Virus record (IMG/VR): IMGVR_UViG_3300029288_005871
Span: 18,384 to 82,383 of that record
Length of the DNA: 64,000 bases
Strand: one strand, 5' to 3'
DNA from: a virus
Lineage: Duplodnaviria > Caudoviricetes
A program made the position numbers and the translations under genes. Shown one piece after another: positions 34,755-40,345 of this stretch; positions within the stretch are counted from its first letter, which is position 1; every line of letters starts with the position of its first letter. The notes under the pieces are model-generated. The model searched no databases and was not told the DNA's origin. It was given only the letters and a program-made list of their open reading frames with translations.

Positions 34755-34940
34755 GTGGTGATATTTATGGACTATGTACATATAAACATTAAAGTATCTA
34801 GGAATTCATCAAATAAGCTAGGAATTATTATTTTATCAATCTTTACTATTTATATGCTTTGTCAATTCAGCAGAGCATGGGGCAGTAAAGAAGGTTACAC
34901 ACAAGCTATAAATGAGTTAAGAATAGAACAAGGCAAGTAA
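34755..34940 (+). CDS. small membrane protein
   Basis: Central TM; followed by a conserved hairpin. Confidence 0.55.
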   Translation: MVIFMDYVHINIKVSRNSSNKLGIIILSIFTIYMLCQFSRAWGSKEGYTQAINELRIEQGK

Positions 34941-35062
34941 AGCTTTGACTATTGGCTTCGTATTCTTAACATACGAGGCCAAAAGCTAAAACTTTAAAAA
35001 CTAGCACATTAATAATTTAATACTATCAACCCTATAAACTAGAGCAAGCGGGAAGGATTAAA

Positions 35063-35152
35063 ATGTCTAAAAAAGACTATACAAAAATAGCGGATATCTT
35101 TAAAAATAACCGCTTTAATAGTAGAAAATTTAAAGAGTATATAGAACAATAA
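35063..35152 (+). CDS. 29-aa ORF (not in track)
   Basis: GGAAGG SD; MSKKDYTKIADIFKNNRFNSRKFKEYIEQ. Confidence 0.5.
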   Translation: MSKKDYTKIADIFKNNRFNSRKFKEYIEQ

Positions 35153-35293
35153 GCAGATTATAAACTTACCTATCTAGTGGTGAGCTTGTCGAACCATTAA
35201 ATAGGCTCATTACAAAAAGTTATAAATCGCTTGCTCTGATTTATGGGGTTGATAATCACTGGCAGATATAAGGGTATAGCGGGAAGGTAAAAC

Positions 35294-35596
35294 ATGACTG
35301 AATACTATAAATTAGTTATTGATAAAACAGCTCGACCAATGGGAAATAATAAGGAATGGTCAAGATACGATCAGGAAATAAAATACTTTAAAAGTATAGA
35401 GGAAGCAAAAAAATATGTAAAAGATCAATATTTTTATTGCAAAACAAAGTACAAAACTTTTAATGATAATGAAGAAGGCCAAACTGGTTGGATTTATGCT
35501 TTTAAAAGTGATCCCGCTAGTTATGATGATTGTAAACATTATGAACAACACTGGATAAACTTATTTAGAATACATTCAAAACCATGTTTATTCTAA
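35294..35596 (+). CDS. hypothetical protein
   Basis: GGAAGG SD; enclosed by IR pair 2. Confidence 0.75.
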   Translation: MTEYYKLVIDKTARPMGNNKEWSRYDQEIKYFKSIEEAKKYVKDQYFYCKTKYKTFNDNEEGQTGWIYAFKSDPASYDDCKHYEQHWINLFRIHSKPCLF

Positions 35597-35671
35597 AACA
35601 TTTATAGCTATACCCTTATATCTGCTAGTGATACTTATATCTTTATACCTGGCAAGCTAGGAAGGAAAACC

Positions 35672-35992
35672 ATGCACAACGAAACAATAAACATATGGAC
35701 TGCTGGAGCGTTAGAAACCCGTAAAATATCTATTGTAAACAATGCAACCGATATTTTAGAGCTGATAAAAATAGGCAAGAAGCTAAATAATTTCTATACC
35801 CATTCATGTAATGGGTATAATTCAGAGAAATATGATCGTTTAGCTTTAAAATGGGAGAAAAAAGCCCAAGAGATAACCAAACGTATGAAAGTATATATTT
35901 ACTTTCAAACTGACCCAAGAGGCGGAACTATCTATATAGATAATAAACCAATACCAAACAATAATTATACGCAAGCTGTATTTTTAGGATAA
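35672..35992 (+). CDS. hypothetical protein
   Basis: GGAAGG SD; YFQTDPRG motif; enclosed by IR pair 3. Confidence 0.75.
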   Translation: MHNETINIWTAGALETRKISIVNNATDILELIKIGKKLNNFYTHSCNGYNSEKYDRLALKWEKKAQEITKRMKVYIYFQTDPRGGTIYIDNKPIPNNNYTQAVFLG

Positions 35993-36122
35993 TAAATAAG
36001 CCTTGCGGGATAGCTTGAGTTCGCAAGGCTTCAAGCTATCCAATAAAAAACAATATTAAAACATTAAATAGCTTGCCAGATATAAAGATATAACAATATA
36101 AACAAAAGGGAGGTGATTATAT

Positions 36123-36731
36123 ATGATTTTAGATAAAAAAATTATGGGTGTTTGTTCGATAGCTTCAACAGATGAAACACGGCCTATTCTAACAGGTGTA
36201 TTACTAAAAGATAACAAGGCTATTGCAACGGACGGTTATTCACTTATTGAAACAGAATTGCCACATATTGACAATGTGGAAACTAAACTGCCTCCAACGG
36301 GCAACCAATATATAAACGGCGAAACCATGCTTATATCAGCTGTGCAATTATCTAAAGTTCTTACTAATATTCCGAACAAACCGAAGCTACCTATTTTAGG
36401 TTACGCTTGGACTGCTAAAAGTTCAAATGAAAAAACCGTTAAAATTGTATCAAGCGACTTGGAAACAACAAACGCACCGGAAATAATGACTATTGAAGGT
36501 AATTATCCAGATTATAACAAAGTTAAACCTGTAACAGAAGTTAAAGCTAAAATAACGGTAAACGCTAAATATCTTATAAAGCTTTTACAGGCTGTCATTA
36601 AAACAGATCCCGATCAAATCAATAATATTGTAACAATCGAGGTTCGATCAGAAAAAGAACCAATAGTTATCAAAAACGGTAACGGGGAAAATTCAAAAAC
36701 TTATGCTATGCAAATGCCTTGCAGAGTTTAA
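36123..36731 (+). CDS. DNA polymerase III beta-clamp-like protein (short, about two domains)
   Basis: ASTDETRPILTGV, IATDGY.L, EGNYPDY..V.P, VNAKYL. Confidence 0.75.
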   Translation: MILDKKIMGVCSIASTDETRPILTGVLLKDNKAIATDGYSLIETELPHIDNVETKLPPTGNQYINGETMLISAVQLSKVLTNIPNKPKLPILGYAWTAKSSNEKTVKIVSSDLETTNAPEIMTIEGNYPDYNKVKPVTEVKAKITVNAKYLIKLLQAVIKTDPDQINNIVTIEVRSEKEPIVIKNGNGENSKTYAMQMPCRV

Positions 36732-36904
36732 GGCTTTACTATAACCATCTGTTACAGGTGGTTATAGATAAAATCTTAAATTTCTAAAATTAAAATAATG
36801 CTAGTAAAACCTTATAGTAAATTTAGGCTCAAAGCTAAAGGCAACCGAAATCCCGTCCTACAGCTTTTAGGCCACTAGCCTATAGAATTGGAGGTGATTA
36901 AATT

Positions 36905-37084
36905 ATGGACTACTATTATAGACAATACTTAAAAAGGCATAATCTTGACCAAACCACTACATCAACTAATAAGTCAATAGACGTATACAAACAACTAAGC
37001 GACTACGATAAACCTAAAAAAGAAAGATGGCTTGATAGCGCAATCAACAAGATCAATAACGGCTACCTGATCGAGACTTATTGA
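36905..37084 (+). CDS. small hypothetical protein (59 aa, not in track)
   Basis: GGAGGTGA RBS; MDYYYRQYLKRH... Confidence 0.6.
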   Translation: MDYYYRQYLKRHNLDQTTTSTNKSIDVYKQLSDYDKPKKERWLDSAINKINNGYLIETY

Positions 37085-37091
37085 CTACCAT

Positions 37092-37130
37092 AAAACCACT
37101 GGCTATTTTTAATCCGGCTGGTGGTTTTTT
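37092..37130 (+). terminator. intrinsic terminator
   Basis: AAAACCAC...GTGGTTTTTT hairpin with U-tract. Confidence 0.55.
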
Positions 37131-37157
37131 ATTCCTTCTTTTACCTTGCTCTACCTC

Positions 37158-38759: not shown

Positions 38760-38826
38760 GGCTTGACTTAGCCGTCTATTTTTAGATGGCTAAGATGAGG
38801 TTTTAATTAAAAGGAGGTGAAAAATT

Positions 38827-38997
38827 ATGGTTACTTATACCGAAAGATGGGGTAATTTATGGCAACTATTTATTAAAGAAACCTACAGTGAAAGAGATAA
38901 AAAATTTTGGGTCACTAAAAAAGAAATGTTTGAATTAGATAAAAAATTCGAGAGGTTTTTATTTAAGTTAAATGAAAACTTAGGTATAGCCGGTTAA
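38827..38997 (+). CDS. small hypothetical protein (56 aa, not in track)
   Basis: AGGAGGTGA RBS; MVTYTERWGNLW. Confidence 0.65.
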   Translation: MVTYTERWGNLWQLFIKETYSERDKKFWVTKKEMFELDKKFERFLFKLNENLGIAG

Positions 38998-39026
38998 TAA
39001 AAATATAAAAAAGGAGGTGATAATTT

Positions 39027-39275
39027 ATGAAAGTTTTGCAAGTTAAAGAATATAACCAACAACAAGAGATAAAATATAGCCAAAAAAGTAAAGAATGGGA
39101 ACCTGGAAAAGGTGGTTTTCCACAAATAGCTTTTTATTTATTCTATACCACTTATGGAAGTGAAAGACAAACAGGCTATGTTGCATTTAGTGAAAATAGA
39201 CACTGTGCAATATGGAGAAGCAAAAAAAGCGAAGCTATTAAAGAATTCCAAAAAAGTTACGGTAAATTATCATAA
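39027..39275 (+). CDS. hypothetical protein
   Basis: AGGAGGTGA RBS. Confidence 0.7.
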   Translation: MKVLQVKEYNQQQEIKYSQKSKEWEPGKGGFPQIAFYLFYTTYGSERQTGYVAFSENRHCAIWRSKKSEAIKEFQKSYGKLS

Positions 39276-39305
39276 AAATTTTAATTAAGAGGAGGTGAAT
39301 AAACT

Positions 39306-39545
39306 ATGATCTACAACTATCAAAATGCCATGAGTAAAAAACATTATTTAAAATGCTTGAGAAAAGCTCCTGAATGGATCAATCAAGACGTACCAGATAT
39401 TTACAGATCTGATGGTACTAGAGCAATTGAATGTACTTTTCCAGAATATAAGTTTTTTGTCTATGCTGATAATAAAGACGAAGCTAAACAGCTTGAACAG
39501 TTTATATATCTTAATACCGGCAAAATAGCAGAACTATATTATTAA
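39306..39545 (+). CDS. hypothetical protein
   Basis: GAGGAGGTGA RBS. Confidence 0.7.
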   Translation: MIYNYQNAMSKKHYLKCLRKAPEWINQDVPDIYRSDGTRAIECTFPEYKFFVYADNKDEAKQLEQFIYLNTGKIAELYY

Positions 39546-39617
39546 GGCTTTATTCTACTGCTTATTAAATTAAGCGGTAGAAATAAAATCTTAATACTAA
39601 GAAGGAGGTGATAAATT

Positions 39618-39815
39618 ATGCAAAAATATACCAGAGATGATTTAATAGACAACTTAATTAAAGACGATCTTTATATCCAAGAAACAGAAGAAGCAGCCGA
39701 CTATTTAGATAATATTCTAAGAAGTGGTTTTAAAGGTTATTCCCACTTTACAGATGGCGAACTGATCGAAGAATTTAATACCCGTACAGATGAAGAATGG
39801 AATTTTATTAAATAA
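39618..39815 (+). CDS. small acidic protein
   Basis: AGGAGGTGA RBS; GFKGY...TD.ELIEE. Confidence 0.7.
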   Translation: MQKYTRDDLIDNLIKDDLYIQETEEAADYLDNILRSGFKGYSHFTDGELIEEFNTRTDEEWNFIK

Positions 39816-39843
39816 ATTTAAAAAACAGATAGGAGGTGATTTT

Positions 39844-39993
39844 ATGAAATACGATCCTACAATGATAAATGATGAAGGTACTGGGAAAAATTACGAAGGA
39901 AAATGCCAAGAATGTGATAAAGAAAAAATAATTATTTATGATTATGCTACCCAGAAATGGTTTTGTAAAAGATGTTACAAGGAAAACGGTTAA
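39844..39993 (+). CDS. small Zn-ribbon protein
   Basis: RBS places the start at ATG 39844; CQEC...FCKRC. Confidence 0.6.
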   Translation: MKYDPTMINDEGTGKNYEGKCQECDKEKIIIYDYATQKWFCKRCYKENG

Positions 39994-40079
39994 TAGACCA
40001 TTAGTATAAATTAAGGCTTGACTTTCCCCGTTAATTTTAGCGGGTAAAGATGAGGCTTTAAAAAGGAGGTGATTAAATT

Positions 40080-40250
40080 ATGAAAAAATTTAGATTTACA
40101 GCCAGAGCAGTAGATGTATTGGAAGAAATAATTGAAGCTGAAACAATCGAAAAAGCAGAAAAAATAGCACAGGAGCATTTAGAAAATGGATCAATACCTA
40201 TAGTCGGAGAGGGATATATTGACAATGAAGAACTTGAGGAGATCAAATAA
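40080..40250 (+). CDS. small acidic protein (56 aa, not in track)
   Basis: AGGAGGTGA RBS; IEAETIEKAEKIA. Confidence 0.65.
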   Translation: MKKFRFTARAVDVLEEIIEAETIEKAEKIAQEHLENGSIPIVGEGYIDNEELEEIK

Positions 40251-40345
40251 TTGAGGCTTGACTGGCGAGGTAGAGGGGAGTTTGGTAAAGCCTACAAGCA
40301 AAACTTTTACCTTGCCTTGCCAGATGAGGTCTTAATCGCTCTTTA

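Follow-up and report, generated by a model that had tools for sequence, protein, structure and literature searches.

The early messenger RNA (mRNA) of the Bacillus phage SP82 contains targets of Bs-RNase III (Panganiban and Whiteley 1983; Mitra and Bechhofer 1994, both as cited in PMC4838370 and PMC1935012), and those sites of T7 and SP82 that have internal loops receive a single cut, on the downstream side (PMC1935012). The PeSL elements of T4-type phages consist of a sigma-70 early promoter and a terminator stem-loop (PMC2839356, PMC4122927). Here a set of hairpins is described from an uncultured tailed phage, IMG/VR virus record IMGVR_UViG_3300029288_005871; the window, meaning the whole 64,000-nucleotide (nt) stretch of DNA that was analysed, corresponds to bases 18384-82383 of one 82,383-base-pair (bp) contig of 36% G+C. 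The hairpins are considered to be cis-acting RNA elements at the cistron junctions of two early polycistronic transcripts; together with their relatives in other phages they form a real, well-supported structured-RNA family, which is new to Rfam and represents an already known kind of signal. By analogy with the T7 and SPO1 systems, they are tentatively proposed, at slightly less than an even chance, to be processing and stabilising sites for a host RNase III-type enzyme.

Each element is a single hairpin in two tiers. The outer stem is 10 bp long, A/U- and G-U-rich and conserved in sequence, and starts at the stop codon of the upstream gene; it is followed by a small irregularity, made up of position 13/84 (a G/G mismatch or a U-A pair), an A-U pair and after it a bulged A in the 3' strand. 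The inner stem comprises 12-13 bp of free sequence and carries a small loop, which brings the total length to approximately 23-24 bp, or two helical turns. Most copies have G/G at position 13/84; U-A is found in E2, E3 and E5 of the window and in one copy (L091a) of a related contig, and A-U in one copy. An earlier sequence-only reading of the window had linked TTGA in the left arm to ATGA in the right, and TTTA to ATAA; the linkage holds in all six elements E2-E7, however it separates a G/G mismatch class from a U-A class and is not ordinary covariation. The same reading had described inner stems that vary and yet stay paired, in agreement with RNAalifold, which gives 23 pairs for the six copies, 11 of them with compensatory changes. 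In addition to this short form there is a long form, in which a 4-bp helix (UUGG/CCAA) above the inner stem closes a conserved loop, nAAAGCCU (window 40275-40310 in E7); the AAGCCU of this loop is the exact complement of AGGCUU, which is invariant in the left arm of all copies.

A covariance model, R1, was built from E2-E7; the elements of the window, with their R1 scores, are as follows.

36725-36782, plus strand: E2, short form, U-A class; R1 67.7 bits; fold -24.6 kcal/mol, z score -7.5
38511-38567, plus strand: E3, short form, U-A class; R1 74.1 bits; z score -6.7
38753-38809, plus strand: E4, short form, G/G class; R1 69.9 bits; stop codon TGA within the left arm
39539-39597, plus strand: E5, short form, U-A class; R1 66 bits; stop codon TAA within the left arm
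40008-40064, plus strand: E6, short form, G/G class; R1 70.6 bits
40248-40338, plus strand: E7, long form with apical loop nAAAGCCU; R1 59.1 bits
26731-26788, minus strand: divergent seventh copy, found in a scan for the core and lying in the sense of its own operon; R1 23.6 bits, E value 0.009
34935-34999, plus strand: E1 of the sequence-only reading, a stable hairpin at a stop codon; R1 15.1 bits, E value 1.1

The conserved outer arms noticed in the sequence-only reading are confirmed by counting: there are 6 exact copies of the left arm TTRAGGCTTKA, all on the plus strand and all in the array, where 0.43 are expected, and none of 100 shuffles reaches 6. E2-E7 fold with z scores of -4 to -8 and stabilities of -22 to -37 kcal/mol. 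Seven elements had been listed originally; six of these (E2-E7) belong to one family, and the first, E1, is a look-alike, a doubtful or degenerate member, which was rejected because it lacks the right-arm signature, scores only 15.1 bits and folds better as the minus strand than as the plus strand. The true seventh copy is the one at 26731-26788, which lies between the stop codon TAG and the next Shine-Dalgarno (SD) sequence and ATG of a minus-strand operon. In this copy the core is kept (CTTGAC, a paired stem and GATGAGG) and the outer stem is changed on both sides in a compensatory manner; the functional centre of the element is therefore placed at the small irregularity. In the 82-kb genome there are 7 occurrences of the core with a paired stem, against 0.46 in shuffles. 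Neighbouring hairpins are separated by one to four genes, so that not every gene of the array is punctuated. Beyond the array, the gap that separates the convergent gene 40390-40557 from the following plus-strand operon contains a 26-nt imperfect palindrome (81% complementary) at 40638-40695; it is a weak match to R1 on both strands (approximately 16 bits) and is probably unrelated.

Relatives were found by pattern scans and then with R1. A loose arm pattern matched 108 stretches of IMG/VR, nearly all of them single chance matches, of which R1 retained the contigs L019, L027, L055 and L091; the metagenome contigs L116, L118, L119 and L121 also carry the family, and scanning of viral and metagenome data with pattern and covariance model, the latter a check put forward with the sequence-only reading, recovered it in eight further contigs. 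With the window included there are 24 sense-strand copies in nine distinct uncultured-phage contigs; in several contigs two to four of them are grouped within 1-3 kb. L115 and L117 duplicate the L055 and L027 sequences. Eight copies are of the long form, E7 and others in L019, L027, L091, L115, L118, L119 and L121; the long form is the last element in every array seen, and follows a DUF7249 gene in three contigs. Across 22 aligned copies, 94.1% of cells are paired versus 72.8% after shuffling, with none of 500 shuffles reaching the observed values; 13 of the 21 pairs show double-sided changes, and pairing falls to 33-57% when the partner is slid by 1-3 columns. One genome from each of 185,579 bacterial and archaeal species was scanned with the pattern, without a single match, and no hairpin is present at 21 loci that encode the methyltransferase found next to the early operon. 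In Rfam, the whole window gives no match at the gathering score and 34800-40500 gives matches at chance level only (E values of 0.1-4); a literature search on the arm sequences matched only primers. The family adds to the holdings of Rfam a structured RNA with 24 copies in nine contigs, and its covariation delimits what the cell must read, namely a fixed core at the G/G mismatch and bulged A, with a stop codon in the foot.

Across the nine contigs this core is near-invariant while the rest of the hairpin covaries freely, and it survives replacement of the outer stem in the minus-strand copy; together with the conserved apical loop of the long form, these features suggest a specific partner. 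A sequence-specific RNA-binding protein or nuclease, from the phage or the host, would then read the core CUUGAC/GAUGAGG, and the hairpin could serve as a translational operator or as the site of a processing enzyme or an antiterminator. We regard such a partner as quite unlikely: an all-against-all blastp comparison finds no gene common to all hairpin contigs (DUF7249, the methyltransferase and a few ORFans each occur in a subset), the record (73% complete as estimated by CheckV) yielded neither an RNase III nor a recombinase or Y1 protein, and the U-A class loses both G's of the mismatch, yet persists in two phages.

The elements are selected as RNA and act on the sense transcript, as concluded from their sense orientation, their conserved wobble pairs and an outer stem that is lost with DNA parameters. 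The flanking genes run in the same sense as the hairpin for all 24 copies. Wobble pairs are conserved among the 22 aligned copies (U-G at 11-86 in 19 copies, G-U at 9-88 in 14 and G-U at 8-89 in 9), and the plus-strand RNA of E2-E7 folds 4-22 kcal/mol more stably than the minus strand. When DNA parameters are used, the best folds of E4 and E7 lack the conserved outer stem, and in E6 it is marginal. E4 and its orthologue L119b differ by changes from C-G to U-G and from G-U to U-G; pairing is kept in RNA only.

The elements are closely tied to the ends of genes. In 17 of 23 scorable copies the upstream open reading frame (ORF) stops at a UAA or UGA inside the left arm (U-URA-GG), and in 4 more the stop codon directly precedes the arm; the only variation at the stop position is A/G, which preserves the stop codon. 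Within the window, the left arm of E2 contains the stop TAA of gene 36123-36731 and the arm of E3 comes immediately after the stop of gene 38055-38513; E6 begins 18 nt past the stop of its upstream gene. In most copies only 0-20 nt separate the hairpin from a near-perfect ribosome-binding site, which a start codon follows. The motif AAGGAGGTGA, said to follow most elements together with the next ORF, does so directly for E3-E6 (SD and ATG are found downstream of E3 and E5, and the SD of E6 stands directly after the right arm), but not for E2, which is separated by approximately 120 nt from the next ribosome-binding site, or for E7, which is the final element of the operon and has no downstream gene. 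In three long forms (L019, L119:2533 and L091:6197) the GAGG of the arm is the only ribosome-binding site of the next ORF, which begins 8-9 nt downstream of it; this site is masked by the outer stem. The hairpins had been stated to lack a U-tract and not to be terminators, which agrees with the present analysis: no T-run follows any copy, genes continue downstream without promoters, and a terminator scan listed no family copy, apart from a chance stem overlapping the foot of E2.

Translational coupling is the main rival and best alternative to processing, although we consider it unlikely. A ribosome stopping at the UAA or UGA in the foot of the hairpin would melt the weak outer stem and free the GAGG of the right arm, while the intact inner hairpin would bring the stop near the next start, making downstream translation dependent on, or boosted by, translation upstream. 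Coupling would account for a stop codon held at one left-arm position in 17 of 23 copies, and adjoining the arm in 4 more, and for its variation being restricted to A/G; the three long forms that have the GAGG of the arm as their sole ribosome-binding site are consistent with it, as are the conserved wobbles, which keep the outer stem weak. Most copies, however, are then followed by an unpaired, near-perfect ribosome-binding site for which no unmasking is needed, and a downstream gene is lacking altogether for E7 and for two further long forms; coupling also leaves unexplained the conserved G/G mismatch and bulged A, as well as the need for an inner stem of 12-13 bp.

Processing by an RNase III-type enzyme, the reading favoured here, was already suggested by the sequence-only reading and remains the best one; it is preferred because the build, size and position of the hairpins match those of the T7 and SPO1 intercistronic hairpins, and it accords with action on the sense transcript. 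A double-strand-specific endoribonuclease, most likely the host RNase III, would cut once, on the 3' side, at the irregularity; the inner hairpin would stay on the upstream message as a cap against 3' exonucleases, the weak outer stem would come apart, and the downstream message would begin a few bases ahead of a very strong ribosome-binding site. A second kind of double-stranded structure occurs in the same operon.

35024-36093, plus strand: three abutting long-range stems of 27, 26 and 25 nt, 89-96% complementary, found by an inverted-repeat search

Each of these stems loops out one small gene with its ribosome site, and their sequence is unrelated to that of the hairpins; near-perfect double-stranded RNA would close loops of the size of a gene. 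A single comparable long-range stem is present in L019 (3552-3576 / 3822-3846). A double-strand-specific nuclease is favoured because only such a reader would treat the hairpins and the long-range stems alike; no RNase III gene was found in the roughly 73% of the genome that the record is estimated to represent. In the same part of the operon, after gene 35672-35992, the stretch 35995-36050 contains two overlapping, mutually exclusive hairpins, GCCTTGCG..CGCAAGGC and GGATAGCTTGA..TCAAGCTATCC, which are a possible switch.

Three observations weigh against cleavage by RNase III. The conserved apical loop of the long form has no explanation in a cleavage model; the fixed place of the stop codon (17 of 23 copies) and the use of GAGG as sole ribosome-binding site in three copies suggest a link to translation that cleavage does not need; and the 10-12 nt that are near-invariant across phages of differing G+C content are more than an RNase III of broad specificity needs, and would fit a sequence-specific partner. 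A more elaborate proposal is to be treated as decidedly speculative: the element may be a portable junction of stop codon, hairpin and ribosome site, read by a dedicated putative factor at the core and at the apical loop of the long form, which would tie the termination of one cistron to both processing and initiation of the next and define exchangeable cassettes; if this is true, lytic phages would possess an RNA-first functional counterpart of integron cassettes. At the other extreme, the hairpins could be passive stabilisers that block 3'-to-5' exonucleases in the manner of repetitive extragenic palindromic (REP) elements and insulate cistrons from misfolding, without any cleavage. Their stability (-22 to -37 kcal/mol) and their position right after stop codons are compatible with this role, but it requires no conserved sequence, mismatch or bulge, nor a fixed length of two turns, and is very improbable. 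If cleavage by an RNase III-type enzyme is proven, a distant lineage of uncultured phages would be added to those that punctuate early messages in the T7/SP82 manner, and the element would provide a compact natural part (stop codon, hairpin and strong ribosome site) for operon building.

The hairpins also coincide with breaks in homology between phages. The one clear and sharp case is provided by L119 2451-2548 and L121 1-98, which are 96% identical through the left arm; past the left arm the hairpin is of the long form in L119 and of the short form in L121, with different genes beyond. E4 and L119b (L119:1758-1814) are 87% identical by blastn, inner stem included, and the hairpins L119c and L121b are 82% identical; in both pairs the flanking genes are unrelated. 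In L119 a family hairpin stands after the gene homologous to window gene 35672-35992, whereas the window gene itself has none after it, and the DUF7249 module common to L118, L117 and L019 is bounded by hairpins. From these alignments we read the arms as mosaic junctions that would arise by homologous exchange at short conserved sequences, a consequence of the elements and not their primary function; it should be considered, however, that gene ends are where homology would stop anyway. The break located in the arm of near-identical contigs offers a concrete case of the swapping of early ORFan genes.

A primary recombination site at the DNA level, either similar to attC or a hairpin for a transposase or recombinase, would move gene cassettes directly, and the cassette-like layout, the break within the left arm of L119 and L121, the orthologous hairpins flanked by unrelated genes (E4/L119b and L119c/L121b) and the hairpin-bounded DUF7249 module can all be cited in its support. 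It is nonetheless extremely improbable. No match to tyrosine recombinase (PF00589) or Y1 transposase (PF01797) was obtained in the 82-kb record (73% complete by estimate), nor was a serine recombinase found there, while control genomes all match PF00589; the arms are unpaired as single-stranded DNA and the minus strand folds much more weakly; wobble pairs are conserved as wobbles; and the coincidence with gene ends would be expected of homology in any case. Of the recombination site envisaged in the sequence-only reading, a weak sense similar to that of PeSL elements survives, through the L119/L121 junction and the orthologous hairpins between unrelated genes; the attC analogy drawn there is not upheld.

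Other known types of element were considered and rejected. A kink-turn or box C/D motif (GAUGA/UGA) is not compatible with the hairpins since the register needed for tandem G-A pairs would disrupt the outer stem and both G's are absent from the U-A class; a hammerhead or other ribozyme is excluded by the presence of a single helix only and the lack of an Rfam match. Repeats of the REP and REP-associated tyrosine transposase (RAYT) type or of the IS200 type were discarded given the lack of a Y1 (HUH) transposase match (PF01797) in the record and of any pattern match in the genomes of the 185,579 species. A miniature inverted-repeat transposable element with TTAA ends was set aside because the interiors are unrelated yet stay paired, a right-arm mini-ORF (AUG-AGG-NYU-UAA) because its AUG is AUA in the U-A class, and a link to the phage's TIGR array because the repeats there are unrelated.

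The contig belongs to a tailed phage and encodes a large terminase, portal, tape measure, primase-helicase and RtcB. The large terminase is most like those of the SPO1 group, with approximately 27% identity to SPO1-group and other phages; a blastn search of the region against 50,697 phage records gave no nucleotide match. The hairpin array occupies two co-oriented plus-strand transcription units of small genes, which are divided by a terminator-like hairpin and a promoter-like site (37092-37186).

34482-34510, plus strand: promoter-like site heading the first transcription unit; 11 of 12 hexamer matches, with TG; consensus match, not mapped
37092-37130, plus strand: hairpin with T-run, intrinsic terminator-like by its fold, preceding the promoter-like site at 37158-37186
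37158-37186, plus strand: promoter-like site at the start of the second transcription unit; consensus match, not mapped
40352-40381: terminator hairpin of the convergent gene, closing the hairpin region; consensus match, not mapped

The promoter scan found no promoter-like site at E2-E7, with strong ones only at 34482 and 37158. The cassette genes are almost all ORFans and only two have family matches: gene 36123-36731 (plus strand) encodes a 202-amino-acid (aa), half-size, sliding-clamp-like protein, and gene 37218-37787 (plus strand) a 189-aa protein corresponding to the C-terminal part alone of ComM/Mg-chelatase. A protein-guided search of IMG/VR returned one weak relative of the 202-aa protein and none of a 152-aa cassette protein. 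That the cassette genes serve host takeover is a guess. Beside the early operon lies a methyltransferase gene (window 32106-33209) that is 67% identical to L019 198-1169 and has the same divergent arrangement; it is a single unbroken frame in L019 and is split in the window. Elsewhere in the window, at 4383-6389 on the minus strand, a Mu F-like head protein is split by an intein (Intein_splicing, Hint) with a DUF559-type endonuclease domain. The start of the contig, which lies before the window (G000 1-220), is inside a 108-bp tandem repeat; the record is linear and probably incomplete at its start.

Among known systems, the attC sites of integrons share with these elements conserved outer inverted repeats, a variable paired centre, an unpaired base, one site per cassette and a single orientation; they differ in that no integrase was found here, the arms are unrelated to the attC R and L boxes, and the structure holds only as coding-strand RNA. 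The PeSL elements, also named as an analogue in the sequence-only reading, are alike in being short conserved intergenic motifs amid small non-essential genes, at sites where related phages show insertions, deletions and replacements, and it is this replacement-junction feature that is retained here, from the one clear case of L119 and L121; the defining promoter and terminator are not, as the hairpins have neither promoter nor T-run and stand 0-20 nt from the next ribosome-binding site.

The early RNase III signals of T7 (R0.3, R0.5, R1, R1.1 and R1.3) are intercistronic elements of the sense transcript, each placed after a stop codon and ahead of the following ribosome-binding site; folding of the T7 early intergenic regions gave two-tier hairpins with conserved sequence around an internal loop and variable apices. 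The present elements resemble them in having approximately two turns in two tiers, a small internal irregularity surrounded by conserved sequence, and a variable apex. The sequences are unrelated, however, and R1 (the covariance model, not the T7 site) does not describe sites of the T7 type; the conserved part is the lower, outer stem here and the upper stem in T7, a single mismatch and a one-base bulge take the place of the 4x5 bubble of T7, and the stop codon forms part of the arm. The T7 and SP82 sites are cleaved by RNase III; for the hairpins described here cleavage is predicted.

In SPO1 (L122 11777-12793), four hairpins, unannotated in the RefSeq record, lie between genes 56-60; they have common outer arms GGUUGCUAG / AUGGAGCC and inner stems that vary but are paired, with a strong purine-rich ribosome site after them. 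We take these repeats to correspond to the SP82 sites reportedly mapped by Panganiban and Whiteley in 1983. The two families have no sequence similarity, and R1 matches nothing in the SPO1 terminal redundancy; they are nevertheless alike in consisting of repeated hairpins between very small early genes, with conserved outer arms and variable, fully paired inner stems, after which a strong purine-rich ribosome-binding site follows.

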